DNA of 63,013 bases, the filler included, from Kipferlia bialata (lineage: Eukaryota), in the NCBI GenBank assembly GCA_003568945.1. It is 6 parts of 6 records of this genome, joined end to end, with 100 filler letters (N's around TTAATTAATTAA, not from the genome) between each part and the next. Parts side by side here need not be neighbours in the genome. Positions count along the whole stretch, not along the records: positions 1 to 12,975 come from BDIP01001003.1; 5 more parts are not named here. One strand, written 5' to 3'. Shown here in pieces: positions 1-30,718 of this stretch. Below the pieces are notes generated by a model, which had not been told where the DNA came from, ran no database searches, and saw nothing but the letters and a program-made list of their open reading frames with translations. How positions within the stretch are numbered: the first letter of the stretch is position 1; the number at the start of each line of letters is the position of its first letter. The translations under genes and the position numbers were made by a program.

Positions 1-60
1 GCTGTCTGCCAAAGTCATGGCACAGATGGAGATGGAGAAGAGAGTGGTGAGTATATATGG

Positions 61-91
<31 letters not shown>

Positions 92-3000
92 TGAGAGAGA
101 GAGGGAGAGAGAGAGTACTCTCTGCCAAGGTCATGGCACAAGTAGAGATGGAGAAGAGAGTGGTGAGTAGATATGAATAATAGTCACTGTACACGTATCA
201 GACACTTCTCTCTCTTCCTCTCCCTCTTTACTAATCACTCAGGCCCTATCCCTCCAGGAGTCAACACTGAGAGCAGCATAGTGTATAGTGCATAGTATAT
301 ATATATAGTATATATATACATATAGTTGTATAGAAAGTCTAATCCCCAGGCCCTATCCCTCCAGGAGTCAACACTGAGAGCAGAATGGGAGAGAGAAAAG
401 GAGGAAGAGAAGGAACAATGGAGCAGGGAGAGAGAGAGAGAGTGGCACACAGAGAGGGAGAGAGAGAGACAGCAGTGGGAGAAGGAGAGGGCATCGCTTG
501 TGTTGAAGTACACGGAGATTCAGGTATATATATTTATGTATATACTCCACATACTATATAGTACCATGTATAGGCTGTGTATACATGCTTGTGTTGAAGT
601 ACATGATAGAAATTCATGTTCCCATGTAATTTGTGACGTGTATTTCACTCCATCAGTAAGACAATTTGTATATGGAAACACGCCTATTGCTCTCATACAC
701 TGGTAATATCTAGTCATATGGTTGTATTGACCTATCAGAAGAGAGATACCCTTAGAGAGGCAGACACATTCATCTATACACTTGTGTGTACACTATTCTA
801 ATAATTTGTACAATCCTATATATTGACTTACCCTGAGAAGAGGCAGAGATACTCACCCTTTGTACATAGTAGTAGTATATAGTATAAGGTCAACTCTCAA
901 TAAGTATAATGTTAGTATAATGATTCTTGTATAATTCTACTATATTCTTAAGCTCTAGGAGAGAGATGCTCTGAGAGAGGCAGAGGTACTCACTCTGCAG
1001 TCCAAGCTGAGGGAGACTCAGGTATACTAGTAGCCAATATGTTCTATTTAATAGATACTTACATAGATGTATATATTAAAAGGTACACTTTGTTAGCAGG
1101 CTATGTGTTCTGTTATATATATATATCGTCACTCAACCTGCAGTCCAAGCAGAGAGAGGCTCAGGTACGCTATGTAAGTATGCTATATATACTACTGCAG
1201 GGATGTTGTATATATATACCTATATATATATATACATAGCGCCACTCACCCAGTCCAAGCTGAGCGAGGTTGAGAGGGAGAGAGAGACTGCCTGTACCCA
1301 GGTACACTCTGGCGTATATTCATCTAGTACCTGCACAGTCTACCATATACATACATACATGTGTATACCATATGTGCAGTCTGAGTACGATAAGGCTATG
1401 CAGGGAAAGATGAGAGAGGTTGAGAGAGAGAGGGAGAGAGAGTAGGCAGAGGGACTCTCCCTATGTATTTGTATACCCGTATGTGTGAACTATTCAGCAT
1501 ATACTGATGATGAGGACGGCTACATATATATTGTATATTCATATATACTGATCTCAGGCCCAGACATTGGCCCAGCAGAGCACAGAGCACGTGTCAATAC
1601 TGCAGGAAGAGGTGTGGGTATACCAAGACATGTACATATATATGAGAGAGAGAAAGAGAGAGAGAGATGGGCGTGTCAGTACTGCAGCAGGAGGTGTGTG
1701 AGTGTGTGTATATATAGATATGAGAGAGAGGGAGTATCCAGATAGGGTGTCATACCTATCTTTAGTCTTTCGGTAAAGCATTTCTCTAATATCCAGCTTA
1801 CCACTGTTGCCCAGACTGCCAGTGAGAGCCTCTAGCATATATCATGTTTATGTATGTGTATATCCTGTATATCCATTCTTCTGACCTGTAGGTAGACACC
1901 CTCTCTCAGACTGCCAGTGAGAGGGTCGAGCAGCTGTTAGTATAATCATAACTAATGTGTATACCTATATATATGGACTATACCTATACCTATATATATC
2001 CTCTATCACTATCCAATATCCAGCTTACCACTGTTGCCCAGACTGCCAGTGAGAGGGTCGAGCATATATCATGATTAAGTATGTATATATCCATTCTTCT
2101 GACCTGTAGGTAGATGCCCTCTCTCAGACTGCCAGTCTAGATGTATATACTAAGCCAAGTGTTTATATACTGGCATTTATATACCCAGTCTTCTGACTTG
2201 TAGGTTGACACCCTCTCTCAGACTGCCAGTGAGAGAGTCATTCAGCTGATAGTATAGTCATAACTGTCCAACTTAACACAATATAACTATCTCTAATATT
2301 CAGCTCAACACTGTTGCCCAGACTGCCAGTGAGAGAGTGGAGCAGGTGGTAGTTCTAAGGGAGAAGAATGAGGACTTGATGGATCAGGTGAGTTGCATTC
2401 TTTAGGTATTAGAGAGTATATATATATATAGAGAGAGAGAGAGAGTCGAGCAGGTGGTGGTGCTGAAGGAGAAGAACGATGATCTGATGGCTCAGGTAGA
2501 GTAGTACATCTACTAAATATGTATTGGTATATATACATAGAGAGAGAGAGAGAGCAGGTGGTGGTGCTCAAGGAGAAGAACGAGGACTTGATGGCACAGG
2601 TAATATAGTATATATATACTATATATAGTAATTTACGTAGGGGGAGAGAGAGAGAGAGAGTTGGCAGTGCTTAAGGAAAAGAATGAAGTTTGATGGCTCA
2701 GGAAATAGAGAATGTGTCTATAAAGCGATAGATAGAGATAGAAAGAGAGAGATAACTTAATGGTGGAGGTAATAGTGAGTATTGTGGTATATATGTTGTA
2801 TATGTATGTGAATTTGTAATATAAATAAACGGTAGTGTGTATTGCATATCTATATTTGAATTCCTCTCTTTCTCTACACCCTTATTTACACCAGATTGAC
2901 AGGCTGAGGGGCAGGGAGAGAGAGGGAAGGGTCAGACTGATAACAAGGCCAATTCCAACAGGTACTGACGCTCTTGTTATATTTATTAATTCATTCGTCT

Positions 3001-3193
3001 AATATTTGATATTAGTATTAATTAGTATTAATTGTGTGTCTCTCTCTCTTTCGTTATCAGGCGTTGACCCAAGAGCCTTTTCCCTGTTCGACATGGACCT
3101 ATCCTTTTTTCTCTCTCGGTCTCTCTCTGTCTCCACTCCTAATACTCTTATACGCAGGCGTTGACCTTAGAGGCTTCTCCCTGTGCGACATCG

Positions 3194-3225
<32 letters not shown>

Positions 3226-3337
3226 GGCTTACACTTAGGAGTAGATCTTAGAGGCTTCTCCCTGTGTGACATGGATCTGAGTGGGGCATACTTTGAAGGG
3301 GCCAGAATGGAGAGTGAGTGTAGCAGTAGTAAAGTAC

Positions 3338-3374
<37 letters not shown>

Positions 3375-3444
3375 CATGGATCTGAGTGGGGCATGCTTTG
3401 AGGGCGCAAGGATGGAGAGTGAGTGACTATATATATATACGTAC

Positions 3445-3481
<37 letters not shown>

Positions 3482-3773
3482 CATGGACCTGAGTGGGGCA
3501 TGCTTTGAGGGGGCCAGGATGGAGAGTAAGTATATACACTTAATATATATACATATATATATATATGTATAAATATATAAATAGGGAGAGAGAGAGAGAT
3601 GGACCTGAGTGGTGCATGCTTTGAGGGGGCCAGGATGGAGAGTGAGTGTATTCACTATATATACATATATATATATATGTATAAATATATAAATAGAGAG
3701 AGAAAGAGACATGGACCTGAGTGGTGCATGCTTTGAAGGGGCAAGGATGGAGAGTGAGTATATACACTATATG

Positions 3774-3816
<43 letters not shown>

Positions 3817-6246
3817 GGCTCTGACTGGGGCATGCTTTGAGGGGGCAAGGATGGAGAGTGAGTACATATGTCTAATTATTAGCATATAATATACTAACCA
3901 TATGGGCACTTGTATTGCTGGGTCTACACTTAGGGGTACCTGTCTCAGGGGTGCATCTCTCTCTCTCTCTCTCTCCCTCTCTCTCTCTCTACCTTTATGT
4001 ATATACATATCTAGTAATAGTCTAATTCCAGGCACTGACATCACCAACTCCATCATAAAGGGTGCCTCTCTCTCTCTATCTCTCTCTCTCTATATAGACT
4101 CTTACCCTAGGCACTGACCTTACTAATTCCGTACTTAGGGGTGCCTGTCTGAGTGGTGCCTCTGTGTCTCTCGTTATATATATATCTCTCTTTATATATA
4201 TGAATATGAATACTCTTACCATAGGTACTGATATATCTGGGTCCACCCTCCGAGGTGCCTGTCTCAGTGGTGCCTCTGTATAAATATATATATATATATG
4301 TCTAGATATACATACTCCAATTCCAGGTACCGACCTTTCCAACTCCATCCTTAGGGGTGCCTGTCTTAGTGGTGCCTCTGGTGTGACATGTGCCATGCTC
4401 AGAAGCATTAGAGACATGGATCTAACAGGTAAGGCATAGTATATATATATACATATACATATATATGGGTGCCTCTGGTGTGACATGTGCAATGCTCAGA
4501 AGTGTCAAGGATAGGGACTTGACAGGTATATAAGTACTATATACAGGGTATGTGTATTCATACAGTATGTATACGGGCATGGAGCAAACTCGTATTTGTA
4601 CATGCATATAACGGTATATGTGAGTCTAGAGACAATCCTGACATCAGGCGTCGACCTGTCCGGTCTCAACCTGTCCCTGTTCGACCTGTCCAACATGAAC
4701 ATGAGGGGGTGTAACATGAGGTAAGGGATATAGTTTAGTATATACATAGTATATACTATGTAGTATATAGTATATATGTATGTAGTTTATATATACATGT
4801 CCCTGTTCGACCTGTCCAACATGAACATGAGGGGGTGCAACATGAGGTAACCTTTACACTATATACACTATACTCTAGGATACCATTCATCAGTATGCAT
4901 CTGTTTGACCTCAGTTGCTGCCAATCTCTCTTGGACCTCTTTCTCTCTCCATCTCTCTCTCTATACCTATATTATATGTACATTCTCTCTCACTAACCCC
5001 AGTGGCTGTGACCTGTCCAGGACCACCTCTCTCTCTCTCTATATATATATATATATTTATGTACATTCATATTTATACATACTAATCTAACATCCAGTGG
5101 CTGTGATCTCTCTAGGACTAACTTTGATGGGACAGTGCTGGCAGATGCATGCCTGGAGGGTGAGTATATATATATATATGCAAAAGTTTATGAATACATC
5201 AATATAGCCTTTGATGGCACAGCGCTAGCGGATGCATGCCTGGAGGGTGAGGAAATGTGTATGAATCTACATTTAGTGTATATTAAAGTGTGTATATACT
5301 CTATGTGTATGTATGCACATGCAAATGTGACAGTCCTGGCCGGTGCAAGCTTGGAGGGTAGGATATCTATATTTTGAGTAAGCTTACCAATGTGAAGTGA
5401 ACGGATAGTTCTCTCTTCCCCTCACTCCCAGGTGCAATTCTTCCAGACATCTCTCTCCCTCTCTCAACGCATATGTATCTGTGTTTCTACACACAACCGC
5501 TTACTCCCAGGTGCCATTCTCCCTGACCTTGAGGTCCTGCATAGGGTGAGTGTGAATATATATAGTTATGCATGTAACAATATGTATAGTAGTGCCATAT
5601 GTGTAACCAACTTCTCTCCCTCTCTCATATTCTCTATACTGCAATATTCTTACCATTAGGTCAAGCTCTCCCCTGGCCATGTCTCATTCGTCCCAGCAGG
5701 GAAGGACATACAGAGACATAGTGCGGGGACAGGTAAGTATATATATATATATACACTTACATGCATGTACGTAGGTTATAGGGGGGGAGAGAGACTTGGC
5801 AGGCACATACAGAGACACCGTGCGGGGACAGGTAGATATACATTAAATGTATACATTTACAGGAATATACGTAGGTTATAGAGGGGGAGAGAGAGAGAAG
5901 CACATACAGAAGCACAGTGCAGGGACAGGTACATACAGCCTATATGTCCTGGAGTAGATAGTGGCAGCTATATAGAGTGTACTCTCTTACATTCTCTACA
6001 CTTGTATTCTATATACTTACTCCAGGTGCCAAGAACAAGAAGCAGACTGTCAAGACCCACCTAGTCATTCCGGCCACAGAAGGTATATATACATGTATAT
6101 ATATACAGACACATAGTACCATATTATTATACATATATATAGTACATGGAGTACTTAATACAGACGGTTAAGACCCACCTTGTGATACCTGCAACAGAAG
6201 GTATATACACATATAGATGTGTATATATCATAGTCTTTCTATCTGA

Positions 6247-6289
<43 letters not shown>

Positions 6290-7258
6290 TCCTAGGCATC
6301 TCATGGACCCTCAATTCCAACTACAACTGCTGGGTCTACCTGGGGTGGCAGAAGAACTCAACAGAGGCACTATTGAAGGGTGTGCATGGGGTTGTACAGT
6401 GCACGCGGTACGTATATGGGTATCTCATGTATGGTACAGTCTGATATATGTTGGTGAACCATACACTGCAACACTCTGTTGAGTCTTGTTCTCTCTCTCT
6501 GTGCAATCATATACATGTGTATACATAGACTATACGTGTGCTTCTATATACGTTTGCCTGACGTCAGCATTGGTCGCACCGTCACTCTTAAGTCACCCTT
6601 CAGGACATTCAGGAGGTATGAGTGTACTGGTATACCCTAGAATGCTATGCTTTAATATACTTTAGTTAACTCTGTATGTCACCCTTTAGAACCTTCAAGA
6701 GGTAAGGGTGTGTATGATTCCACCATCAAATAGAACTGTGTGCCATATACTGTTGCATATGTATGAAACTATATATGCACACATATATGTATCTCTGCCT
6801 CTAACCCTAAGGGATTGTGAGCCAGGCAATTCCATACTCACTATATATGTATATGTACATATATATATATCCAGAAGTATTCTTACACCTGTGTGCATAA
6901 TTGTCGCCTGTACCTATTACACATATCCATTAACCTCTGTGTGACTGGGATCCCATCATTTCATCTATATATCATGTATAGATCGTATATATAAACATAT
7001 GTGTGTGTAACTATACGCTGTGTACATACGCTTACACCTATGCCTCTGACCCCAGGGACTGTGAGCCCGGCAAGCCCCTCAAGATTGAGATTAGGCATGT
7101 ATACAATCACACTAGATTTATTCCATCTAAGCTGCCTTGCCACTGCGCACAATATATTCTTGACTATTCCTCGCTACTTCTTTGACCTTCCTTAACCTTT
7201 CAGGGCCATTGGCGAGGTCCTCATCACCCTCGACCACATGCAGGAGGAGCCCGTTTAA
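1..7258 (+). CDS. Multi-exon gene (5' partial): Glu/Arg-rich coiled-coil region, then pentapeptide repeats, then an unassigned C-terminal domain
   Basis: Spliced reading gives ...EWEREKEEEKEQWSRERERE..., GVDLRGFSLCDMDLSGAYFEGARME (3239-3313), GTDLSNSILRGACLSGAS, GVDLSGLNLSLFDLSNMNMRGCNM and GCDLSRTNFDGTVLADACLE, which fit the A(D/N)LxX pentapeptide pattern. It ends RDCEPGKPLKIEIR|AIGEVLITLDHMQEEPV-TAA at 7256-7258. Introns carry many half-exon copies. Confidence 0.75.
1790..2701 (+). repeat. Half-exon array: five acceptor+5' halves, intact exon 2304-2387, three 3' halves
   Basis: Core CAGACTGCCAGT occurs six times; GAGAAGAA(C/T)GA..TGATGG..CAG occurs about four times. Confidence 0.9.
3061..3860 (+). 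repeat. Half-exon array: two 5' halves, intact exon 3239-3313, five 3' half+donor copies
   Basis: GA(T/C)CTGAGTGG(G/T)GCATGCTTTGA(A/G)GG.GC.AGGATGGAGA|GT is repeated, each copy preceded by (GA)n. Confidence 0.95.
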
Positions 7259-8530
7259 GGGCAGGTACAGTACAGTGTACGACTCATTGCGAATGGTGTT
7301 CAAAGTCTGATTTTCTACTTTGACTCCGTTTCGAATTTTGTACATCCATTTTGTCTGTTTTATTGTCCTGTTTTAGCGCCACTATTTGACCCAAAGAGTG
7401 AAACTCTTCTCGCAACTGAGGGGAAGAGTGTTTCAAAATCACCACTATGTATATTACTAATAGACACTCGTGTATGTTTCGCGTGAACTTGGAAAGTATG
7501 ATTCTTCAAGTGTTTGAGTAATTCTCAAACAATCTCAATGAGATTGACATACAGTTGGAGACTCCAATGGAGATCCAACTGCGTGTTGGTGTAGTTGATC
7601 AGTAATAGTTATTGAATCTTGCAAACACTATAATATCTAAGACAACAAATACGTCACATTCTCCGATACAATGTAACATATATCAATTGCAATGGGTCCA
7701 ATATGTATCAGACAATGAGAATACTAAACCTACGCGCTCCCTCTCTCTGGCTTCCGCTGTCTTTTCCTAGCCACATAACTAGACATAATCTTGGCATTAC
7801 GTAATTTACGTACGTTGTAAATATTAGTATACATCATCATCATCTCTCTCTAGCTCTCTACCACTCTATATATCACTCCCTAGAAGGGAGTCCCTACAGA
7901 GTAGAGTATCCATTGGAAAGATGACAGTATGCAGTAGGGAGAGGTTTTGTACGGAGGGAAGGGGAGAGAGGTAGCGGTTGTATAGGACTCCGATATAGAG
8001 AGAGAGGATGACGTGTCTTGGTGCAATACAAGTATTATACAACTGTCAGAGAGTCAATATGTGATAAGGTGTATTTGTGGTAGGAGAGCCCAATACTATA
8101 GTATCCATAATGAACTGGCGACGGAGCCTTGAATCCAATCACTGCATTGGACCAATAGACTCTTCATATGGTATTAGTATACTTATCCCAAATTGGGACC
8201 CAATTACAATACTACTATAGAACACATATAGTGGAGCCTCAGTATGAGTAATTACGCACACGAATCGAGATAGGACTACATCAATCTATTGACAGTCCTA
8301 TGTGACTATGTATAGCATACACATACTATGTGTGTGCTATGTGTGACACATAGTCTGAGCGTTAACCCACTAATACAATGGAAAATGACTAACCACTTCC
8401 CACAATAACCGAATACTACAAAGGAAACATGAAACACAGAAAACAAAGTTATACCAACACAGGGAAACTCAAAACGGGAACAGTGTCAACCCAACTCAAC
8501 AAAAGTCAACAAAAGTCAACCTAGGACAAC

Positions 8531-10481
8531 TCACTGCAGGCTCCTCTCGTAGTCTAGCTGTCTGACAGCCATCAGGAGCTCATAGGACAGACCCTCAGTC
8601 AGTGTCACATCTACTGCCACCTCCCCCCTCCTGGGCAGGCCCCGTATCTTCCCCTCTCTCCTGACGGGCCGGCGTGGGCCCCTCTTGGCCTTAGCAGGCT
8701 CTGCAGGTGCTGTAGAAGGTACAGGGGGCAGCAGGGATGCAGGGAGGGTGCTCTGCCGGATGAGGAGGGCCTCGTCTGCGAGGTAGGTCCTGGGGGTTAA
8801 AGAGGGTGTAGAGGGAGAGAATAGGGGTGTAGGGGAGAGAGAATAGGGGTGTAGGGGGAGAGAGAGAAAGAGGAGGGCCTCGTCTGCCAGGTACGTTCTG
8901 AGGGTTAAAAGGGGTGTAGAGGGAGAGAGAATAGGGGTATAGGGAGAGAGAGAGAAAATGGAGGGCCTCGTCTGCTAGGTATGTTCTGGGGGTTAAAAGG
9001 GTGTAGAGGGAGAGAGAGGAAAAGGACGATGTATACAATATGAGAGACGGGGTTGGCCCTTCCTGTGGCTACATAGACGTACAATTCCTTATATACCATA
9101 CCTGGGATCGTACTGTGCCCTGCATCTCTCCCTGTCCAGTCTCCATGCCTCTGCCTCTATGTTGGCAAGTCTCTCTCTCTCTGCCTCCTCCTTCTCCCTG
9201 GCCTATCATTAGTATAGAACGCACTACATATACCATACAATACTATCTTGCTCCTAGCGCCTAGGGGGTAAGGACGGAGTACAAGAAGATTTGAAGTCTC
9301 TCACACATGATATAAACATCTTATCATAAATATGAAATATACCGTAATACATTCTTGCCGTGCCGCTGGCCGCCTCTTCTCTCTCTCTTTCTCTCCCTAC
9401 CTATCCCACTATCACTCTCTCTCTTTCTCTCTATATATACATATCAATACACTCATACCTTCTGCTGTGCCGCTGCCCGTCTCTTCTCTCTCTCCCTCTC
9501 CCTCTCTACCCTCCTATCACTCTATATATATCTATATACATGCCTTCTGCTGTGCCGCTGCCCGTCTCTTCTCATACAACATACATAACCATACATAACT
9601 ACAATATATATATATACTAATGTGTGTGTACGTGTGTGTGTGTATACATACCTTCTGCTGTGCCGCTGCCCGTCTCTTCTGGGTGGCTGTCATCTTGGGC
9701 CTATGGTTAGTGACATACATATACATATAGAGTATATATACACACATTTCTATTTGTATATATGCACATATATCTATATACATGTATGTATAATGAATCT
9801 CTTCTGGGTGGCTGTCATCTTGGGCCTATGGTTAGATATGTCTATATACATACATACATATGTAGAGTATATAATATAAATATATAGTATAGTATATGCA
9901 GTATTACTATATATATAATAGTACTGTACCTGGGCGCCTCTGGCTCCAGACACCACCCTCTGCGCTGCCTTCCAGAATACAGTGTGTATATACTATAGTA
10001 CTATAAATATAGTATATATAGTACATATATATTTGGTATAATGTACATATACACAAACCTTGGCGCCTCTGGCTCCGACTCCACCCTCTGTGCTGCCTTC
10101 CAGAATACAGTATATATATATATACATATATATATAAATACATACTCTAGTAATATTGTATATACTATATATACTATATACACTAATCACCTTGGCGCCT
10201 CTGGCTCCGACTCCACCCTCTGTGCTGCATACCAGATTACAACATGTACTATAGTGTACATATATAATATATATACTATAATAATATTGTATATACTTTA
10301 TATACTATATATACTAATCACCTAGGTGCCTCTGGCTCCGACTCCACTCTCTGTGCTGCCTTTCTGCCCCTGCGCCTGGGGAGCTTCTCCTTCTCTCTCT
10401 CTCTCTCCCTCTCTCTCTCTCTCTCCTTAGCCCTCTCGGCACGGCTCATCCTGGGGTGAAAAACATGTTGTAACTAAGGGT

Positions 10482-10514
<33 letters not shown>

Positions 10515-12902
10515 AAGTAGGCCCTGCTCATCCTGGGGTCAAAAACAAGGAAAGAAATAGAATAGGGTGTACAGGGAGACAGATACTAGCATTACACACA
10601 CAGTACACCGTAACATCGCAGCGCGAATTAGCAAAACTATAGTACACACTAGTACATTGGTTCCAACTACCTGCCTCTTCCTCTAGTCCCCTTCTCTCTC
10701 TCTCCCTCTCCCTCTGCCTCTACCTCAGGGACCACTGGCACAGAAGGGGAGGGGACGCTGGTGGTAAGTGTATATATAATATACATACAAGGTATATATA
10801 CACAATACAATAGTATATAGATGACCCGTGTACCACAGGCACTGATGGGGAGGCGATGCTAGCGTGAGAATACGCAAGAATACTTAGAATCGCTACATCT
10901 ACTCGTCGTTTGTATGTAATTGTACTTCATCAAATAATGCCCAATCACTCTTTATACATTTCTAAATAGCTAAAGGTATGTACCTAGTGTTGGGGACAGG
11001 TGAGGGTGCCTTCTTGGCTGCCTTGGTATACTCTATATATACTCACTCTATACAAGTACTTGCCATAAGTATATATATATATATTATAGTACCTAGGCAC
11101 TGGAGATGGTGCCTTCTTGGCTGCCTTGGTAAATATATATATATATATTCAAAATGCAAAAATCACTATAGTATACCCAGTTGTATATTGTAACTAGACA
11201 TATAGTAGTATAGTAGTATACCTCGTGGGCACGGGTGATGGTGCCTTCTTGGCTGCCTTGGTTATATACACTCTCTCTCTATATATATACGCTCTCTCTA
11301 TATATATATACTTGCCGTGAGTATATATATAAGTACAGTACCTAGGCATGGGAGATGGTGCCTTCTTGGCTGCCTTGGTGTTCAGAGGGGACATGGGGGC
11401 ATCGGGCTCTCTGTCTAGGGGTTAAGGGTGTAGAGGGANNNNNNNNNNNNNNNNNNNNNNNNNNNNNNNNNNNNNNNNNNNNNNNNNNNNNNNGAGAGAG
11501 AGAGAGAGAGAAGAGGGGACATGGGGGCATCGGGCTCTCTGTCTAGGGATTAAGAGCGTAGAGAGAGAGAGAGAACAGTAAATCATGATTGGGGAGCATA
11601 GTATGTAAAATATATGAATATATGTACCCTGCAGGTAGTTCCACAGCTGGGGGTGCTTCCTCCTCAGGTGTATCCTCATCATGGAGGGGTATGCCTCGTG
11701 GTGGAGGCAGTCAGGGGCTGGGCAGGTACTAGTATAAGGTATGTATATGTGTATATATCTATATATATATAGAGAGAGAGAGAGTGGATTGGCAGGTACT
11801 TTGAGTGAGAGGTAGATACCACTCTATGAAGTCACAAGAGTGTATGAATACACATGTATTATATATACACTGTACACTCACTCTATGTAGTCGAAGAGGC
11901 ATATATACAATATATATACATATATACATATATAATACACTATATCAGATAGTATACAATATACACTCACTCTATGTAGTCAAAGAGTGTAAGCACACAT
12001 ATACTTATAGAGTATACTTATAGAGTACACACTATATATACACAATTCACTATAACACACTTAGAGAGAGAGAGAGAGAGAGAGAGTTAGGGATATACAT
12101 ATAGAGGCACTCCAATACACTATATACACATACTCTATGTAGTCAAAGAGTGTCCTGACTGTACTCTATATATATACACACTCCTAGCTATGGCAAGGGT
12201 ATCAAGTCATCTATACACAATATAGAACACATATACACTATATGAAAGTATATATAAACAGTGTATACACATATACACACTGGATACATACTCCATGTAG
12301 TCAAAGAGTGTCCGTGCTATGGCCAGGGCATCAAGGCATAGAGATATATATGTACTCTAACACATAGTATATACACTATATATGTATATATCTTGTGTAT
12401 ATATACACTCACTCTATGTAGTCAAACAGTGTCCGTGCTATGGCCAGGGCATCAAGGCACATATATACAATATATATACTTATATATACTCTAACACACT
12501 ATACATATACTATATATATATACACTATATGTATGTATCTAGTATATATAGTGATATACACTCACTCTATGTAGTCGAAGAGTGTACGTGCTATGGCCAG
12601 GGCATCAAGGCATATACATACACAATACACTACAGTGTATACTATACATAAGTATATATACTACATATATATACACACTATCCATACTCTATGTAGTCGA
12701 AGAGTGTCCGTGCTATGGCCAGGGCATCGAGGCATATAGATATGTATATATATACATACAGTATATATATACTACTATACACTTTATCAAACTATATATC
12801 ATATATATACTATAGTATACACTATACATACTCTATGTAGTCGAAGAGTGTCCGTGCTATGGCCAGAGCATCGAGGCACTCGGTCTCAGTGTAGGTATCG
12901 TC
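8531..12902 (-). CDS. Multi-exon hypothetical protein (5' partial), basic and low-complexity
   Basis: Exons with CCCAG acceptors and GT donors: DDTYTETECLDALAIARTLFDYIE, ...HHEAYPSMMRIHLRRKHPQLWNYLQ, ...KAAKKAPSPMP, ...KAAQRVESEPEAPR, HRPKMTATQKRRAAAQQK, and last exon RTYLADEALLIRQ...LDYERSLQ-TGA (8531-8533). No family recognised. Confidence 0.6.
11820..12902 (-). repeat. Half-exon array: about eight 3' half+donor copies downstream of the intact exon (about 12902-12830)
   Basis: Plus-strand ACTCTATGTAGTC(A/G)AAGAGTGT(CCGTGCTATGGCCAGGGCATC) recurs with AT-rich spacers. Confidence 0.95.
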
Positions 12903-13074: not shown

Positions 13075-13077
13075 NGG

Positions 13078-13129
<52 letters not shown>

Positions 13130-13597
13130 GTTGGAAGGCAGTTAGTAAATACATAAGCTTATGCATTGTATATACTGTTGACCCACCTCCGAGAATCAAT
13201 GGGTCCGGGCCTGTTTCTGGCAGTGCGAGAGACGCGACAGCCTATAATTAATTGACGCAGAGACATATATATACATAGACTCAAAGGGATTGAATGGCAA
13301 CACAACAATAATACGGTTCCCTCTTCTGCTCTACACTAGTACCTGATACGTCAACAATTGCCTATAGGAATTATGATATATACACATACACCACCACCTG
13401 TATCGTAGAGCAGGAGAAAGCCCCCTCCCACCACATACACTATGAAGGCATCGCCAATCTGCTTGCCGCCAAGGGGGACACTGACCAGTTCTAATAATGG
13501 CACATCCGCAGAGGGAGGCCGCATACCGGTTATGTGCTTGGCCACCCGGGCCGTACACTCAGATTACAGATACAAGTGCTGGAAAGAGAGAGTGAGT

Positions 13598-13695
13598 TGT
13601 CTGAAGTGGGACTTGAACCCTCAATCGAGTAGCTTTGCTTCACCGTGAGATAAGCCGCTTATCATAAGCGGCTATCAAGCCGCACTGTATCAGGC
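13598..13695 (-). other. tRNA-like relic: T-arm and 3' acceptor half resembling tRNA-Leu, next to a perfect hairpin
   Basis: Minus strand GGGTTCAAGTCCCACTTCAGACA (13620-13598) resembles the B-box/3' end of eukaryotic tRNA-Leu (GGGTTCGAATCCCACTTCTGACA). I cannot fold a clean cloverleaf. Confidence 0.3.
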
Positions 13696-13900
13696 GCACA
13701 ACACAGTAAGTAGAACAAGGTGATCCACGTGCCACAACATCCTCATACGCAATTTACACACACAACACCCTCCCGAAAACACGGGAACCCTCCCAAAACA
13801 AGCACTCGGCCGAAGATTCTTCCCTCGACCGAATGACTGAAACCACTAATAGTACAACCTCACACTCTCCCAGACAATACGATACCCACATTATGGCCTG

Positions 13901-14764
13901 TCACTCCGGACAGCATACCCCATGGGACGCGAGCAGGGCCTCTAGCTGGGAGACCCTTCGGTGCAGCCGCCTGTTCTCAGACACCAACTCAGACACGCCG
14001 CTCAGGATGACCTGAGCGTGAGGCCCCAGACTCCATGTACATATGGGTACCGATATATATATATACAGACATGGATGACCTCGCCCATGTCGCACGCCCT
14101 GCTGCTCGAGGGGTTCCGGTCGCCGTAGTACACCCCCCCCTGTCCTTGCATGTGCATATGCCGGGCAGGGGACCTTCCCCCCTTGCCGTACTCGAGGGAG
14201 GATGTCCTACCCTCCTGACCCCTGTCCACAGACACCGACACCCGGTCAGACGAGAGAGAGCAGGGGGCGGGGGTGGCAGAGTTGGCGTGGGGCACAACAG
14301 CAGGAGTCACAGTAACAGTCGTCACTGGGTTGGGAGATGCTTCACGACAAATAGAACCGACCCACAAATGTATACAGTATGAATAACAAAAGATGGGTAA
14401 TACTGGCGAGGGTCAGTGTACCTGAGAACCTGCCCCTCTGATGGACATGCCCTGCCTTCCTCTCGCAGGATGAGTGTGTCTCCTTCCCCACACTGGTTGC
14501 CCTCGGGTGATCAGTGTGGGTACTTGGCATGGACACAGGGGGGCATCGGGAGGTATTGGTGGAGTGTAGCAGAACCCCCGACTCCGTGGATGCCGCTGGC
14601 ATGCCTGTGGCAGGCAGAGGCCAGAGGGGCAGGTGAGTGGAGAGATCAGGAGCCAATATCGTGGCGGGAGGGGTGACTTGGCTTCCCTGATTCCCAGAAG
14701 AAGATGTCACACTGCTAGATTGACTCCCTGAGGATATTGTGGCTTGCAAGGAAGCCTCTGGCAT
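13901..14764 (-). CDS. Three-exon Ser/Pro-rich hypothetical protein with a short C-terminal coiled coil
   Basis: Exons at about 14764-14422, 14339-14080 and 14011-13901 join in frame: MPEASLQ...RGRFS|ASPNPV...CDMGE|VILSGVSELVSENRRLHRRVSQLEALLASHGVCCPE*. The start could lie slightly upstream. Confidence 0.5.
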
Positions 14765-14959
14765 GGACCACCTTGTGAAAAGCCGGCTTTGTCAGGCTAG
14801 ACCGACCTCCATTCTGATCATCAGAGACAAAAAGCTTGAAGGGTTTGTCGAGGCAGCTGCCTGGCAATGCCAGTGGCATCATATCGGACTCACTCTCTTA
14901 CACAAGCAAAGGGGGTAACAACAACCCATCCCCCCCGCGCCACACCACGCACCTACTTG

Positions 14960-17900
14960 ATGGACTACAACGATCTAGGCCTTGACCCCTTTGATCAGGA
15001 TGGGTTCGATCAGGACGGGTTCGACGATACGTACGATGACTATCAGTACGATGACTACTCCTCGGAGGACGACCGCCTAGCTGCCCAGGACGAGGAGCAG
15101 GAGGAGGAGGAGGAGATATACACCCGCGAGAGGGAGATGCACGACCTGACCCTCGACCTTGATATGGGCCCTGTCCAGAGGTTCCGTCTGTACATCCTCG
15201 ACTTCTACTTTCTGCGGCGGTTCCTCGCTTTCTACGACCTGCCTTCAATCGCAGAGTCACTCCCCCTGGCCACGTTCTGTGATGAGATCCTGCCCTGGAT
15301 GCGGCACATGGCCCGGTCCATCGACCCCGACGCCCATGAGGGCGAGACTGCATACGAGTTTGAGGGCCTCTTCCTGAACATCCAGAGGCTCATCGACGAC
15401 AACTACGCCACGCCGGCTGACTTTGCATACGACATTCAGAGGAGGTATGTGGGGGTGGTATGGGGACGTGTTTAGTATGAGACTAGGATAGCCACCCATC
15501 TCTGACATGCCTTCCCTGCTGTGCGTATCAGCAGTGTGGGGTTGGAAGATGTCGCATATCTCTCTTAATTGTACTCTGTCTCATTTTTCAGTTCATGCAT
15601 TGTGTCTCTGGCCATGTGCTCTGTATATCCCCATCCATATCTGCATCATATCATATGAGCACCCGGCTGTATCCCTTGTCCCCTCATACTCACCCCAGGT
15701 TCATGGGCGACCCCCAGCCAACTGACAGGGAGGAGGCATACTACCTCAAGTATCTGCTGTTGGCCAGGACGCCAGAGATAGCAGCTGCCCTGCTGAAGAA
15801 GGAGGCAGACCCAGAGACAGGACTTACAGGTACATACTGATGACCTATTCATAGTAAAGTGATATGGGGCATTGGTGGGTACTGCATATGTCGTTATATA
15901 TGTGGTCATCATATATGTTGTGGCCCTTCCATATGTATATATTCTCATGGTTGTGCACTCTGCGGCTCACCCCAGGGATGGAGGTTGTGTGCGAGGGCAT
16001 CCTCCCTCTGCTGCTGTGTGCCGTTAGATCTTGTGTGGCAGACAGACCCAGGGAGCTCATCACCCGGTCAGTCCGGTCGGCCATCGAGATCTCGGCCCTT
16101 CTGCCCTCTGAGCTTGTGTCCACCTACACCCTCAGGCGCCTGGCCCTCCCTATGCTGGAGAGGGCCCTGTTCTCTAGGCAGGGCATGGACGAGGGAGAGG
16201 CGGTGGCACACCACTTCGGTCCCCCCCCTGACGACACCCCTCTCTCCTCTGATGCCGCGTCTGCCATGGGGTGGGGCGAGGGCACCCTCTTTGCGCTGTC
16301 TGGCACTGTGGAGGACTTCCTACAAGATGGGGTGGAGATGAGGGTGGGACCCTATGGGCTGGCCGAGTTTGAGATGCTACAGGTGGGGTAGGGTATTATG
16401 ATACAGGCATCGTTGTGTAATGAGACTGTCCTACCCGTCTCCCATGCATATATATCCCCCCCCCCCCTCTATATACTGACCCCCAGGCCTACCAGCTGAG
16501 GGATGACATCATGATCAGCGCCTGTGAGCTGCTAGGTGCCATTGGGAGCAGGCTCCCTGCTGCCGACCTGTGTTCCATTGTCCTACCCATCCTGGGCCGC
16601 CTGGCCACCTCCAGACCCATCAAGGATGCCGTGCTGGCCGGCTCTGACCATGTCGACGACCCTGGCCTCAGCGTCCTGCTGGACGCCCCCACGGCTGAGT
16701 CGCTCATGTTGACAGGCCGCATCGAGAAGAGTGTGTTTGTGAGGCGGGAGGCCGTGTCTTCCCTGGCCCTGCTGGCCGCCAACATCAACGTCGTCCACTC
16801 CAACAGCAACAGCGTGGGGGACGGGCCCGTGGACCTGGGCTTCCATGCCGGGGACACCACCTACCTGGACCCAGCCACCTGCTCCCTCCTGCTGCCCCTG
16901 GTCACCGAGCTGATATGCAAGGACATGAGCTGGGGCATCCGGAGGGTGGCAGTCGGGTGTCTGCCCGCCCTGGCCGGTCTGTTCCCCTTCCAGGACAGGG
17001 TCGAGCTGCTGTGCCCTGCCTTCCTGCAGATGCTCAAGGACCCCTCGGAGTGGGTGAGGCTCGAGGCCCTCAAGGTGCTGGGGGCCTTCCTCTCTAGGGT
17101 GGTGCTGGACGAGGACAGAGAGAGGGACGACAGCCTCCACCCCACCCTGGCTGGTCCATGCCACGTGTCCCCCATAGCCCCAGGGGTCCTGGGCACCTTG
17201 GCCGCCTCTCCCGTGGTGGCCCAGCTGGTTGAGGTGTTTGCCTCTGTGCACCCTGTCTGTGAGCCTTCCTATGACGATGTCATAGAAGACAGCATGAGTG
17301 ATATGTCCGACATGGACCTGCCGGACATGCCTGCCGGGCTGGAGCTGAGGGCAGAGATGTCCCACCCTGCTGGCTTAGACCCTGTGGAGGGGATGGGCGA
17401 GGACGACGCAGACACCCCCCCAGGCCTGGACGTGCCCCCTGGGATGGACACTGAGCCCATGCCCTACCCCCACATCACCCTGGAGACAGCCGAGACACAC
17501 GTGCTGGTGACTGCCCCCCTGCAGCTGTCGCAGAAGCAGAGGACCAGCAAGGAGGTGATCCTCAATGCGGCAGAGTCCTTCCCCCTGGTGCTAGCTGTGT
17601 TTGGCCACTGCACTAAGTACAAGGCCCTCCTCCTGCCCCTGTGCAAGGCATACCTCGACAGCCCCATACCCACTCTGAGGGCACCCATAGCTGGGGCCCT
17701 GGGGGAGCTACACGACGTTCTCCCCCCCGAGCGCCTCCTCGGCATTGTGTCTGCGTGTCTGTTTGACCAGGACTCTGTCATCAGATTATCCACCCTGGAG
17801 AGGCTGCACATCCTGGTGTCCAGGTCTCAGCAGGTGGCCAGGCAGATACCCTTCACGCTGCGGTCTCTGCTCTTTGTGTCTAACCAGGACATGCACCCAT

Positions 17901-18823
17901 CCTCTGTGGGAGGGGGCACGGCATACCAGTGCGGCAGCTGGCGCCTGAGACAGTCTGTGGCCGAGCACCTAGATGCCATTGTCGAGGCCAACCTCAATGC
18001 CCTGCACATCGCCAGGGACCAGATCATCCCCTACCTACACGATACCCTGGGCCCTGTGTTTGTGGTGCTGCTGAGGGACCCCGTGTCTGCTGTGAGGAAG
18101 GCAGCGGCCAAGGCTGTGGGGTGTCTGATAGCCAGACTGGCCACCCAGCACATGTCGCCCATTGACAGTGAGGTGCCTAGGGACTGCCCCCTGGCCATCG
18201 AGGGGAGGTGGGAGGCCTTTGTGCAGAGCCAGTGGGAGGGGGTCAAGGGGATAGCGGGCCCTGCCCCGACCCTTGCCGCTCTGTTCAACCTCATCAACGC
18301 CCTGGCGGTGCACCAGATGGGGGAGAGGGGCAGGGGGCATGCAGGGGGGGTGGAGCCAGACAGCGTGGAGGCAATCTCCGGCCCCCTGTGCAAGAGGGTC
18401 CTGGTGCGTGTGGTGCACTTTGCCTTGCTCAACAGCTCCACATGCGCTGCCCTCCCTCTGGTCAACGTCCTTTGCCAGCTCGTGTCCCACCCCAGCCCCA
18501 GCGTGCAGATCTCAGCCGTGCGGTGTGTGTACTCCCTGAGACTCAACCACAAGCCCATCAGCAGGCACCCCAGTGTGCTGCACGTGCTGGATGGCCTGCA
18601 GCAGAGTGAGTCTATCGAGGTGGCCAAGTTTGCGGTGGATGCGCTGAGTGTGGCCACAGGGGAGGAGGAGGAGGAGGAGGAGGAGGTTGTGCATGAAGAG
18701 GAGGAGGGCCTTGCGAGTGAGGGAGAGGGGTCTCAGTCTGAGTTTGGGAGGGACCGGATAGAGGGCAGCAGCGACTACAGCGACGAAGGCAGTGACTTCA
18801 TGACTGGGGAGTTCCCAGGTTGA
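14960..18823 (+). CDS. PPP4R1: HEAT-repeat protein, Ser/Thr protein phosphatase 4 regulatory subunit 1-like (PP2A-A/PP4R1 family)
   Basis: Exons 14960-15444, 15699-15829, 15976-16382 and 16487-18823 splice in frame. Motifs CKDMSWGIRRVAVGCL, FLQMLKDPSEWVRLEALKVLGAF, AAESFPLVLAVFG, WRLRQSVAEHL and LLRDPVSAVRKAA match remembered PP4R1 HEAT repeats (e.g. ISDPSRWVRQAAFQSLGPF). Confidence 0.75.
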
Positions 18824-19362
18824 CACCTTCACTGCCTACCCTAGGCCTGTGTCCTTCACTCCTGTGCCTCTTATGTCACCTTCTTTTGTTAGTCTCACCC
18901 CTTTATAGTGTATGTGTCTTTATTAGTTTCAACTGGTGTTCGTGAGCCAACTCTATGTGAGTCAGTTACCTTCCAGTTATTTGTTGTCGTCTGTATTTTT
19001 GTACCACTAAATTGCGAGCCATTCCGACTGTCTATTGGAGAGTATTGGTATGTGTGTCAATGTAAGAGGCAAGGTATCGTTGTGTTTGTGTTTATATTAG
19101 CACTGATCTATTCCTCGCTGCCCTCCTCAAGTAGAAGTTCTAGAAAGAGCATCAAGAAACATTAATAGTTAATATATACAAGGAACGTACATCTAGATCT
19201 TATACTCTAGAACTACTAGCTAATAATTAATGGCAGTGCGTAAGTCCCTGTCGACCAATGACGTGTAGTTTTTGCTTAGTGGGACCCTTAGATCTACGGA
19301 TTCCAAAACAAGGACGAACGACGACTGCTCCAACACCGATTCCCAACAAACTCACTCCGATT

Positions 19363-20528
19363 ATGTCCTCTGTCACACCGGTCAATGCCTTTGAGTGGAG
19401 GTATGGATGCCCGTAGTACTTTCCACTTCTTTTGTGCATTCCTGTTGAAATGTATTTCGTCCACTTCTGTGTTCTCAATGCAGCACCTTCGACCCCTCCG
19501 GCAAGACCCATGTGATGAAGAACCTGGTCAACGGGGAGTGGCACGCCACAAAGACCACCGGATCCCTTCTCAACCCTCTTACGGGCGAGGAGGATTACAT
19601 TGTGAGTTCTATTTTGCCTTGTTTTACAGCACTTGTCACGTTGCCTCCTGGCTCTACTGCGTGAATACGGCCATCAATCAGTTGTGTTCTTACCCCAGCT
19701 CTACCCCGAGACCACCATGGAGGAGGCCCAGGTCTTCGTCGAGAGCCTGAAGAAGTGTACGTGAGTTTGTCACCTCTTCACTGTAGAGCCTATTATCCAT
19801 TCCCCCTACCCCTCACGCTATAGGCCCCAAGAGTGGCCTTCACAACCCCCTCAAGAACCCCAAGAGGTACAGGGACTGGGGAGCCATCACCTTCAAGGTG
19901 GCCACCGAGATCCGCAAGCCCGAGGTCTCCGACTACTTTGCCCGTATCATACAGGCAGTCTGCCCCAAGTCATACACACAGGCCATCGGCGAGGTCAACG
20001 TCGTGGCAACCTTCCTCGAGAACTTCTGTGGTGCGTGGTCTCCCCTGCATGGCATACATATAGTTCAGCCTGTTCTTCTACTGGCAACTCGATAAACCCC
20101 AACACTCTCTTCTATGACACCACGCCGTTACTCCTCCTTGTTTTCTTTCCACTCTGACTCTTAGGAGACCAGGTCCGCTTCCTCGGTGGAGGTGAGCATG
20201 TGCCAGGTGACAGGGTCGGGCAGCAGGCTAATGGCTACAGGTGGCCCTTTGGACCAGGTGCGTCATGGTTTGTTATTGTATTATGTATATATACATCAGC
20301 CAGCTCCCCCCCCCCCCATGTCTCTCTGTCTCACCCCCAGTGGCCATTGTTGCTCCCTTCAACTTCCCCCTCGAGATCCCCGTGCTCCAGCTGATGGGTG
20401 CCCTCTACATGGGCAACAAGGTGCTGCTTAAGGCAGCCACCACCACAGCTGTTGTCATGGAGCAGTACCTGCGCCTCCTGCTCTGGGCCGGGTGCCCACA
20501 CGAGTGCCTCGACTTCATCAACACCAGG
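19363..20528 (+). CDS. ALDH12A1: Delta-1-pyrroline-5-carboxylate dehydrogenase, ALDH12 (plant-type P5CDH); 3' end lost in a gap
   Basis: Six exons give ...KNLVNGEW...PKSGLHNPLKNPKRY...DYFARIIQAVCPKSYTQAIGEV...FLENFCGDQVRFL...GQQANGYRWPFGPVAIVAPFNFPLEIPVLQLMGALYMGNKVLLK, all ALDH12-specific motifs. Confidence 0.92.
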
Positions 20529-20546
20529 GTACGACTCTCTTTTTCA

Positions 20547-20595
<49 letters not shown>

Positions 20596-20886
20596 ACCAC
20601 CGCGGGNNNNNNNNNNNNNNNNNNNNNNNNNNNNNNNNNNNNNNNNNNNNNNNNNNNNNNNNNNNNNNNNNNNNNNNNNNNNNNNNNNNNNNNNNNNNNN
20701 NNNNNNNNNNNNNNNNNNNNNNNNNNNNNNNNNNNNNNNNNNNNNNNNNNNNNNNNNNNNNNNNNNNNNNNNNNNNNNNNNNNNNNNNNNNNNNNNNNNN
20801 NNNNNNNNNNNNNNNNNNNNNNNNNNNNNNNNNNNNNNNNNNNNNNNNNNNNNNNNNNNNNNNNNNNNNNNNNNNNNNNGTGGGGT

Positions 20887-20920
<34 letters not shown>

Positions 20921-21557
20921 GTATACATCGGACTTTGAGCAACGGTGGAATCCATCTCTTACTCTGCGTGTTGGTTCAGAGAACAAATACAGTATGGAAA
21001 CGAATGGAGGAGTAGATGTAAGTGTGTGGAATACGGCACCTATGGCTGTGGAATGCATGTCAATGTATGTCTCATCTGGGATGCACTTCTTACACAGCAG
21101 AAGGTCCGGAGAGTCCGACTTGTTGGTCTGGGGGTCAGAGAGGGAGCCAGGGAAGAGACGAATAATTCAATAGTATATCAATACTGAGCCAAGCACATAT
21201 ACCCACACAACCAGTACAAATATCACGATATTACATAACATACGTACATCCTCACTGGAACGGGACACGAGACTCATTCTCGATGTGTGCTGTCAAGAGT
21301 GTGTGGGGAGTGGACAGTGAAGAGGTGAAGATGGACACATTGGTGGTCAATACTAAACCTCGGTTTTAATTGGTGTCGCTATTTAAAATCGATGTTTGTA
21401 AATTGAATATGATAAATATAGTCTCAAATCGAGGTGATCGGCCAGCCTCCCAGAACCTCTTTCCCAAACAATCCCCACCCAACATCACACACCTGCACAC
21501 ACACCTAGACCCACTTATTCCCCTGCTCACACTTGTCTGCGTATACTGCGGCGAGTG

Positions 21558-24500
21558 ATGCCTGAGCAGGGGTCCTGGGTGATAGGCAAGGGGTCGAGAC
21601 GCCGTATGCCGACCCTCACCACCTTATGCCTGCTATTTATAGCACTGCTGGTGTCTGGGGTGGCCTGTGATGCCGGAGAGATGAGAGCGAGAGAGAAGGG
21701 CCGCCAGCCCACCCATCACTCGGGACAGAGGCTGGGACCCGGGGGGGTATCCCATGAAGAGAGTGGCCTGTCCCTTGAGGACAGTATCCAGGACACCCTG
21801 GACGCCATGGACGTCAAGGCCAGAAACTAGTGAGTGCACAGTGTGTATATATGCGTGGTGTCTTTGTGTAGTGGGATATTGGGACTAGTCATTCATTCAT
21901 CTGCCTAGTCTCCCTATCCTTCAGGCTTACTCACCCCCAGCTGTAGCTACAACTACCGCATCACCTTCAACTATGCCAGGGACTCCGACCCCGACGACAC
22001 ATTCCACCCATCTAGGTAGAGGGGGGTGTGCTAAGTGTATACATATGTGTTCATACATTTGTTATGTAGTATATAGCAGCCCTCACCCTCTAAGAATGAC
22101 TACCAGTCCTCAGTATCAGCATCTGATAATAGTATATACATATGTGGATTCATACACATGTGTTATATGGTATATGGCCCCTAATGTCCAGGAATGACTA
22201 CCAGTCCTGGCAGAGCGGGTGCGGCACCTCCTCTGTCAGCTATGGACAGAGCACCACCCCCAAGCAGTACAAGGGATACTCCCCCTACTACGGCACAGTG
22301 TCCTTCAAGGTGCGGTGTATCAGTATCATAGAGAGTATGTATAGTATATATGTAGTATCATAGGTACTTATACTATGGCACAGTGTACTTCAAGGAAGGT
22401 GTGGGTAAAGGTATTGTATTCATTTGTATCCCACGTCACACACGACATCGCGACTATTTCCGTCCGTGATCTATGTGTGCACCTACCCATCTCTCACCCC
22501 AGATTGGGTGCTGGCAGTCCTACACGTCCAGCAGAGACGTCGTGTCAGCGGTATGTATTGTCAGTGTTCTCTATCTGTCCATTACAAAATGTAAATATGC
22601 ATCTTTTTACTATATAGACACATCATGCAGAGAAGTCGTGTCACCAGATACGTGTGTTGTGGTGTATGCATACACACACATATATATAGTGTTTTATCAC
22701 TATTGCAGTGTTGTATGTGCTCTGTTTTGGTCTTCCAACCATATGCCTCATAGATATATATCTATCTATATATACCCTCACCCCAGTGGTCTGTGACGCA
22801 TGAGACTGACCCCCCCACAGACCAGTATGGAGAGCTGACCCTGCCCCATGCGCTGCTCAGGATAGACAACCCGGAGGAGGAGGTGGGGGGATGCACATGT
22901 GTGTATATGCGTATATGTGTATTTATGGATAATGTAGACACCACTACTATATTGGATAGATATCCTGGAGTGGACAGGTGTGTATAGTATCGTGCACCCT
23001 CACCCCCAGACCGTGTTCCTGACCTACTCTTCTGGCTATGGGGACAACTGCACCGGCTGCAACGTGGGGGATGGGTCTACCATCAACCTATCCCTGTACA
23101 CCCCATACTCTGGCAGCACAGACTACGCAGTCACGGCCAAGGACGCGTCAGGTATGGGTGTGTATGCATTGACACACTCGGTAACTGCACCCCCCCCAAC
23201 CCCAGGCAGTGTGCTAGGTGTGTATGAGGGTGCCCTGTCTGATGAGGATGACGTCACCCTGGAGCTGTCGGGGTCCACAGCCACACTCACCGTACAAGGG
23301 GTGGCAGGGCTCGAGGTGGGGGGAGGCACAACCATACACTCATGTCTATGTATATATCCATTGTGACTGGCATAGCATACCCTCACCCCTAGGACCTCCG
23401 GATGCTTGTGCAGGACACCTCCACTGGTCTGCTAGTGGTGGAGGAGTACCTACTCGATGACTACACATGGGGGGAGGTGGGTGGCAGTTGGGGTGTAGTG
23501 TATATGTGGCAGTCAGTGTGTGTATGCTCTCTCTCCCTGACCCCCAGGACATCTCCGTCACCCTTCCCTACGACGTTGAGTACACTGTGATGGTCAGGTC
23601 ACAGACAGACACGGTCTTCACAAGGTGGGTGTGCATATGGAGACCAGAGATACACTCCCTAGACACCCCCCCCTTCCCACCTTAGGTACCAGACCGTGAC
23701 CCTAGATGAGGATGGCACCACCGTGGTGTTTGGGTCCCACCTGATAGACCTAGACAGCACAGACATGGTGCAGCCACTCAGACTCACGCTCTACAGCGAC
23801 ACTCTGCAGAGCCAGGTACAGTGTGTGTATATATATAGCTATCCCTACTGTGGGTATATGCACTGCTCACCCCTAGGTCTTTGAGCACTACTACTCTGCC
23901 GGCACCCTGCACTCTGTACCTGTCCTCGAGGGGCCATTCTTCTATGAGGTACATATGCAGTTAGTGTATGTGGTGCCTATTCGCAGATTCACCTTTGAGT
24001 GGCTGATCGTCTTTGATCAGTGTCAAGGAGTGTATTGATATGTACGTATGATCCATATCCATGGTGTAATAGGTACTATTTGGTACTTTGTCACTGTAAT
24101 GCCGCACCCACCCCAGCTGGCCTGGCTGAGTGACTCCTCTGTGGGTGAGACCATGACATACGAGTACACCCATGAGTGCTGGGACTACATGGACGGTACG
24201 CAGTGGTGGATGTGTGTGTATATGAATATAGATACTAAAGTGCATCCCCCCCCCCACCCCAGCTGCAGACTGTGCCATCACTGAGCACATGTGCCAGGTG
24301 TCCTTTGACGCATCTACCCTGGGAGTGGCTGCACCAGAGAGCATCAGTGTGCTGTACGAGGGTACGGTGGTGGAATATATATATAGCGGTGGTGATTATG
24401 GCACCCGACTCACCCTATGTGCTGTATTGGATACATTCGTATATAGTGTAAAGCCGTATATGTATGAATGCCCCCTCACCCCCTAGGCAGTGGTGTGTAT

Positions 24501-26142: not shown

Positions 26143-26144
26143 CA

Positions 26145-26493: not shown

Positions 26494-26529
<36 letters not shown>

Positions 26530-28311: not shown

Positions 28312-28363
<52 letters not shown>

Positions 28364-29373: not shown

Positions 29374-29425
<52 letters not shown>

Positions 29426-30444: not shown

Positions 30445-30476
<32 letters not shown>

Positions 30477-30554: not shown

Positions 30555-30608
<54 letters not shown>

Positions 30609-30666: not shown

Positions 30667-30718
<52 letters not shown>

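Follow-up and report, generated by a model that had tools for sequence, protein, structure and literature searches.

Arrays of exon-intron boundary copies in Kipferlia bialata introns: a protist case of amphioxus 'mirages'

Amphioxus genes for Adh3, the globins BflGb6 and BflGb9, troponin C and PGBD5 carry 'mirages' (PMC3087553; PMC3902484), in which an exon-intron boundary is copied in tandem, in the manner of a minisatellite. Mirage units are up to 160 bp long (10-160 bp reported) and 81-100% alike, and many preserve AG/GT; unequal crossing-over has been proposed for them, as has the gain of an intron from a unit, and their origin was called unclear (PMC3087553). Here we describe arrays of this kind in Kipferlia bialata, a free-living fornicate with 124,912 introns (PMC5874029). 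Our window is a 63,013-nucleotide stretch of six K. bialata scaffolds with N spacers between them, and all counts below are limited to this one window. As in amphioxus, either boundary of an exon can be copied, and regular splicing is unaffected, in our case in gene A and the last intron of gene B.

A similar arrangement occurs in human F7, where the first unit of a 37-bp variable number tandem repeat in intron 7 likewise spans the exon-intron boundary, and where the downstream pseudo-donors are functional yet silent, the most upstream donor being chosen (PMC1557585). Unlike the Kipferlia arrays, the F7 repeat is confined to one locus and to the donor side, and its pseudo-sites are identical (PMC1557585).

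The Kipferlia arrays have boundary-spanning units, minisatellite size and splice signals that are kept alongside normal splicing, and in these features they match mirages: the initial annotation of this DNA called the architecture undescribed, but it is the one known from amphioxus (PMC3087553). There are two main differences. The amphioxus cases are single loci in an animal, whereas in Kipferlia 48 of the 61 introns in four genes (A-D) hold copies, often on both sides of an exon and with a narrow range of unit sizes. Kipferlia copies also have a measured silent-site bias that points to diverged coding donors, and none is reported in the parts of the amphioxus text covered (PMC3087553). What appears new here is the protist case, the density of the arrays and the codon signature, while the architecture itself was already known. 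Our literature search, with most subscription papers and the supplements of PMC3087553 and PMC8516963 outside it, found no account of such arrays in Kipferlia or any protist, of this density, or of a codon-level mirage analysis. The covered parts of the genome paper do not mention junction repeats, and the string 'duplicat' occurs 0 times in its text (PMC5874029).

Geometry of the arrays

Our gene set has 9 genes or gene parts with 121 exons and 112 introns, every frame open; the models for genes B, D, E, F, G and H were built by hand. Outside the set are the HEAT gene and a dehydrogenase-like gene (both in piece 2), the middle of gene E, gene F above 55785 and the gene in piece 6. Every exon was aligned to both flanking introns (224 pairs) with a score cut of 28, which 0.87% of non-cognate pairs reach, so about 2 false matches are expected per 224 pairs. 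The copy count is a lower bound: a copy visible near 2110, for example, scored under the cut.

The scan gave 126 exon-copy matches in the 112 introns, and 122 have the polarity claimed by the initial annotation, whose coordinates also held when exon ends were aligned to their own flanking introns. Of these, 72 are 3' parts downstream of the exon and 50 are 5' parts upstream of it. The other 4 comprise 2 from first exons truncated where a scaffold begins and 2 at the threshold, where about 2 are expected by chance. We removed 2 wrong-polarity matches at score 28 before the codon analyses, leaving 124 copies, and retained 3 right-polarity matches with the same score. Each exon side with copies has 1 to 8, as had been claimed, with the maximum at exon 12832-12902. 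The spread is uneven, with copies in just 9 of the 51 introns of genes E-H versus the 48 of 61 in genes A-D. A masked self-comparison found 189 close direct matches, including 99 in piece 1, 62 in piece 3, 3 in piece 2 and 0 in piece 6; in it, the HEAT, dehydrogenase-like and piece 6 genes had no close tandem match. Positions 13076-21500 contain no unit-sized tandem repeat.

Units have a median length of 105 bp (10-90%: 85-140), with approximately 35 bp from the exon and 70 bp from the intron, and the copied intron flank stands above background for approximately 9 nt at donors and 20 nt at acceptors. Because the adjoining intron flank is copied along with the exon part, the units are tandem duplications that span the exon-intron junction. 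Copies of one exon mostly have a common breakpoint (in most multi-copy families), and 13 of the 124 are identical to their exon. Tandem exon duplication that leads to mutually exclusive exons also leaves exon-like copies with coding-type divergence in adjoining introns, but this requires that an entire exon be copied together with its two splice sites. None of the 124 copies is a whole exon with acceptor and donor; the lone match to both ends comes from an exon cut by a scaffold start.

The initial annotation took the polarity as the sign of a system. However, any head-to-tail duplication with one break in an exon and one in the adjoining intron yields this polarity (a geometric argument), so it is no evidence of one. 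Where an intron contains both kinds of copy, the 3' copies all precede the 5' copies (17/17). We also considered duplication of a whole intron with both exon ends as the source, which would put 5' copies before 3' copies, an order seen in 0 of 17. The claim that copies run out into microsatellite is half right: the open end enters a dinucleotide run in 64 of 124 copies, and the other 60 have no dominant run. Run type follows side, with (GA)n favoured 13 to 0 at 3' copies and (CT)n favoured 16 to 0 at 5' copies. The modelled introns are themselves polarised on the sense strand, with G runs and (GA)n toward the 5' end and C runs and (CT)n toward the 3' end. Intron G+C content is 0.45 and 0.49 in the copy-poor genes G and H versus 0.36-0.38 in the copy-rich genes A-D.

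Splicing and read evidence

Splice sites within copies are largely intact but lack their partner site: the acceptor AG is preserved in 42 of 45 copies and the donor GT/GC in 57 of 68. A branch-like motif precedes 62% of the 45 decoy acceptors versus 70% of the 112 real ones, while only 2 of 74 3' copies have one ahead of them, versus a background of 11.6% (p=0.010).

Record 9 of run X2 is a spliced contig (2264 nt) covering gene A and the last intron of gene B. In this contig, 3238-3313, 4327-4425 and 4645-4718 abut, so 10 copies are skipped, and 9101-9204 abuts 8536-8788, so 2 more are skipped in gene B. The gaps between its other pieces (165, 69, 231 and 145 nt) equal sums of modelled exons exactly, and there is therefore no room for the remaining copies among the 33 that lie in gene A introns behind exon 350-523. 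No copy-specific letter occurs among the 8 pieces listed, 7 of which have no differing letter at all. The transcript seen thus joins intact exons, contrary to the suggestion in the initial annotation that copies are used by non-canonical RNA processing, although contigs drop rare isoforms and low-level use of copies could escape.

Choosing the first donor and the last acceptor would fit exon definition or oriented scanning, by analogy with human F7 (PMC1557585). The spliceosome is reduced: 87 of 174 proteins were found and a preliminary search gave no small nuclear RNA candidates (PMC6679479). Pairing of (GA)n with (CT)n, which could loop out the decoys, was tried as an explanation and rejected: only 5 of 112 introns contain both, with no co-occurrence (p=0.76; long introns p=0.21).

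An assembler that stacked alleles in tandem could also create such arrays, and the scaffolds are indeed built from short reads and gapped at microsatellites. We compared positions 1-9850 with read contigs (this range excludes genes C, D and F and the part of gene B that lies upstream). The window may itself derive from DNA run X1, a possibility that weakens the run's testimony against mis-assembly and makes this a re-assembly check, not an independent sample. Also in favour of stacking, just 12 of the 41 copies in 1-9850 share a contig piece, among the pieces listed, with 31 or more letters of their exon, and no listed piece bridges the array at 3373-4278. (A depth gap at 3949-4277 in both runs is uninformative; repeat letters were skipped in the comparison.) However, 96% of 1018 31-mers sampled from 1-10000 are present in X1, and the eight X1 pieces among those listed on 1-9850 have a depth of 427-482 in copy-rich and unique sequence alike (unique DNA 463). 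Unbranched pieces of up to 1277 bases span exons and copies without a differing letter, and there is one differing letter in 9850 bases, common to X1 and X2. Stacked alleles would also sit poorly with up to 8 distinct units per exon and with stops and frameshifts in the copies. Mis-assembly, which the initial annotation had listed among its models, is therefore not supported, and we regard it as extremely unlikely. At position 8642 the window has C and both runs have G at full depth, which is likely a base error in the assembly.

Codon-position bias and the origin of the units

Copies differ from the intact exon at 90/1440, 85/1440 and 291/1416 sites of codon positions 1, 2 and 3 (6.2%, 5.9% and 20.6%). 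The ratio of nonsynonymous to synonymous substitution rates (dN/dS) between copies and exon is 0.20 (bootstrap 0.15-0.27 over 74 exon sides, with 0 of 5000 replicates at 0.5), and neighbouring copies compared with each other have a corresponding ratio of proportions (pN/pS) of 0.31. Mismatch at nondegenerate (0-fold) sites relative to fourfold-degenerate (4-fold) sites is 0.25, and it remains 0.25 after base standardisation. The bias is present on both exon sides, persists in single copies (5.9% vs 18.9%) and holds without CpG (6.7% vs 24.0%), so these controls rule out CpG or base composition as its cause. It also stays without gene A (5.1% vs 20.9%), which excludes that gene's internal pentapeptide repeats.

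The copies nonetheless look dead now: 14 of their 18 indels shift the frame, 34% of their amino-acid changes are conservative versus 31% at random, and there are 4 stops in 1349 codons. Silent bias together with these signs of decay indicates two phases, i.e., divergence as coding sequence followed by decay. We think it rather probable that array growth came from unequal exchange or conversion involving strongly diverged alleles, and that the units are dead pieces of alleles which once functioned.

Growth of this kind would start with a duplication, maybe by slippage or microhomology repair, having one break in an exon and one in the adjoining intron. Such breaks would leave the exon intact beside a half copy, with 5' halves upstream and 3' halves downstream, while other pairs of breaks would change the protein and be purged by selection. 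When diverged alleles met, exons would be their best-matching parts, so the intact half of one allele could mispair with a copy on the other, and exchange between them would add units and bring coding-constrained sequence into the array. The units would then decay neutrally, the spliceosome would use the first donor and last acceptor around each exon (by exon definition or oriented scanning), and selection would strip branch signals ahead of 3' copies, preventing exonisation. The 13 exon-identical units are young, and a diverged allele is unnecessary for them. Fornicates are without Ku-dependent end joining and Rad51A but retain a pair of Dmc1 paralogues (PMC8516963). Since Dmc1 is tolerant of mismatches (PMC8682777), we infer that pairing of exon halves that are 75-90% alike is plausible.

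A simpler process is slippage or sister-chromatid exchange within one haplotype, followed by neutral decay and with no diverged allele. It accounts for the polarity, for the breakpoints shared within families and for the identical copies, and the amphioxus cases are most simply read this way (PMC3087553). However, a copy mutates at every site, so neutral decay from an exon copy cannot take dN/dS far below 0.5. In 180 simulations of duplication and neutral decay, run through the same aligner, the 0-fold/4-fold ratio was near 0.55 (means 0.55-0.58) and always at least 0.40, versus the 0.25 observed, whereas both rates, and a 4-fold rate that stays flat from copy to copy, were recovered once each lineage was given 0.10 constrained divergence. 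The 42 copies with zero 0-fold mismatch are informative in this respect: they differ at 45 of 220 4-fold sites (20.5%), where the snapshot simulation gives 4-7% and allele models give 22-25% when each lineage has 0.10-0.12 constrained divergence. Neutral decay also predicts that 4-fold mismatch climbs steeply as 0-fold mismatch increases, but the climb is nearly absent (0.205, 0.233, 0.289), and divergence depends little on how far a copy lies from the exon (rho 0.11, p=0.33). Changes private to a single copy hit 4-fold sites at twice the frequency of 0-fold sites (p=0.0014). We therefore consider an origin within one haplotype distinctly unlikely. The donors could instead have been the two parental genomes of an old hybrid, or paralogous genes, instead of a population of alleles. 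Either would yield an equal silent-site bias, and the copies upstream of exon 2304-2387 do alternate between two sequence types, but this too is unlikely. Three or more states occur at 12 of 148 4-fold sites versus 2 of 613 0-fold sites, and the 4-fold count has P=0.004 under two parents and 0.14 under independent lineages. As for paralogues, length-limited searches with gene C residues 60-420 (proteins of 465-1481 aa) and with one exon (190-2000 aa) matched only P0001 (KIPB_004635, partial), the gene C protein. Some families have shared variants and mosaics among their copies. The four-gamete test, applied to 68 informative pairs in 10 families, fails for 25 pairs, which come from 4 families and cannot be placed on a single tree.

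Copies might also be kept for use, either as silent cassettes that convert or recombine into the exon or through non-canonical splicing, so that selection at the protein level persists. The low dN/dS would follow, and the preserved AG and branch-like motifs of decoy acceptors and one copy that apparently turned into an exon (1254-1301) point the same way. The vlsE and pilS cassettes and ciliate pointers are of this kind, being unexpressed partial copies beside expressed sequence that serve antigenic variation or programmed deletion. Their donors have intact frames, and variants are fed into the expressed copy. In Kipferlia, by contrast, the copies decay with frameshifts, stops and near-random amino-acid changes, no copy letters appear in the transcript pieces listed, and the spliced contig skips copies. 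They sit in unrelated genes (intracellular and membrane) and not in a single antigen family, and splice dinucleotide retention is approximately what 6% per-site decay would leave. DNA depth, relevant to ciliate-type elimination, is flat across the arrays, and joint signals are mostly microsatellite noise among those listed. The silent-cassette model of the initial annotation thus finds no support, and retention for use is very unlikely.

Several points weigh against exchange between diverged alleles. It is the best supported model of the initial annotation, on the strength of the codon-position bias, but a second allele was not seen (the 9850 bases contain a single differing letter, which is fixed in both runs), and a metagenome scan with P0001 found no relative (7 pattern matches, 0 confirmed). 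It requires synonymous diversity near 0.2, which is at the eukaryotic extreme; theta exceeds 0.1 in some hyperdiverse eukaryotes (10.1101/259507), and protists have the largest median effective sizes (PMC12895298). Sex is unobserved in metamonads (PMC8516963). Our simulations assume that copies mutate at the synonymous rate of the exon, and the same result would arise if silent sites in the exon lineage evolved several times faster. Four-gamete failures can also stem from repeated 4-fold mutation or from conversion within an array. The tight 105-bp unit and the contrast of genes A-D with genes G-H are unexplained, and the evidence is one window with 124 copies and six hand-built gene models.

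Array-bearing genes and what the arrays would mean

Gene A (1-7264, + strand) encodes a protein with a coiled coil, pentapeptide repeats (E 0.0019, under the Pfam cut-off) and a C-terminal domain, and has 18 modelled exons with 35 copies in 13 of 17 introns. From 350 to 7264 its exon chain agrees with the spliced contig, either because pieces abut or because lengths add up exactly. Exon 2304-2387 has four detected 5'-half copies upstream (1797-2253), the ones that alternate between two sequence types, and three 3'-half copies downstream (2436-2701) with a single common breakpoint. The spliced contig lacks the five downstream 3'-half copies of exon 3239-3313 (3373-3857), for which the four-gamete test fails in 8 of 10 informative pairs of sites. 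It also lacks the four 5'-half copies (3929-4278) upstream of exon 4327-4428; these copies have strongly synonymous differences. All of these are on the + strand. Gene A also has a GC-AG intron (7095-7203) that fits the 145-nt length sum and, by length sum, an intron in its 3' untranslated region (7265-8539). Its last exon overlaps, on the opposite strand, the last coding exon of gene B, and one unstranded contig joins both transcripts (7265-8788).

One gene A copy may have become an exon. The 48-nt segment at 1254-1301 (+ strand) is a candidate exonised 3'-half copy of exon 959-1021, with 17 of 18 letters alike across the acceptor and with flanks that align; its inclusion follows from the 165-nt length sum in the spliced contig, its own piece not being among those listed. 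Judged by sequence, it looks like a unit whose acceptor came from exon letters, which would be one candidate case of combined exon and intron birth. A scan for intron gain over 224 exon-junction pairs gave 2 matches with a score of at least 26 (null 15/4000), of which 1 is credible and 1 is C-run noise.

Gene B (8513-12902, - strand) is rich in Lys, Arg and Glu, has a zinc-finger-like motif recognised by eye, and has 8 modelled exons with 22 copies (one threshold match removed). Eight downstream 3'-half matches of exon 12832-12902 lie at 11882-12734 (- strand), two of which may be halves of one split copy. Its last exon has two young upstream units at 8766-9017, with the intron part still closely alike, and a short inner repeat. 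Gene C (26143-37066, + strand) encodes a membrane protein, with 44 copies in 21 of 27 introns; its 28-exon model equals P0001 exactly, and one exon is 100% identical over 108 aa. Gene D (48065-52086, - strand), a hand model with an open frame, has 11 exons and 12 copies in 8 of 10 introns. Gene F, an FG-GAP repeat protein gene, has two downstream 3'-half copies of exon 54094-54246 at 53889-54026 (- strand). Two genes with short introns serve as controls: gene G (21941-25961, + strand; median intron 74) has copies in 3 of 19 introns, and gene H (39266-43877, + strand; median 77) has no credible copy in 15.

Elsewhere in the window, the HEAT-repeat gene (14954-18823) has a 2.3-kb exon and no junction copies. 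The approximately 2 kb 3' of gene C (37067-39102) contain no obvious gene but a 33-bp pair at 37768 and 38272, and may be a decayed element. In the middle of gene E (46300-46872), AG acceptors could not be fitted by eye, and there may be a non-canonical acceptor or a decayed exon near 46430.

The arrays explain long introns and are a hazard for gene prediction. They are also a natural test set for splice-site choice, since a reduced spliceosome ignores intact decoys approximately 100 bases from real sites. The candidate exonised unit bears on whether Kipferlia introns are ancestral, as preferred in the genome paper (PMC5874029), or partly gained. More broadly, and only tentatively, junction arrays could be a genome-wide by-product of Dmc1-only, Ku-less repair in which alleles that have diverged can pair only at exons. 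Each array would then store pieces of numerous earlier alleles, so that synonymous diversity near 0.2 and repeated recombination between alleles (cryptic sex) could be read from one genome, and units would occasionally become new exons or introns. If exchange between diverged alleles did build the arrays, it would supply a mechanism for mirages, and a single genome would preserve many past alleles along with a trace of hidden sex in a lineage without observed sex.

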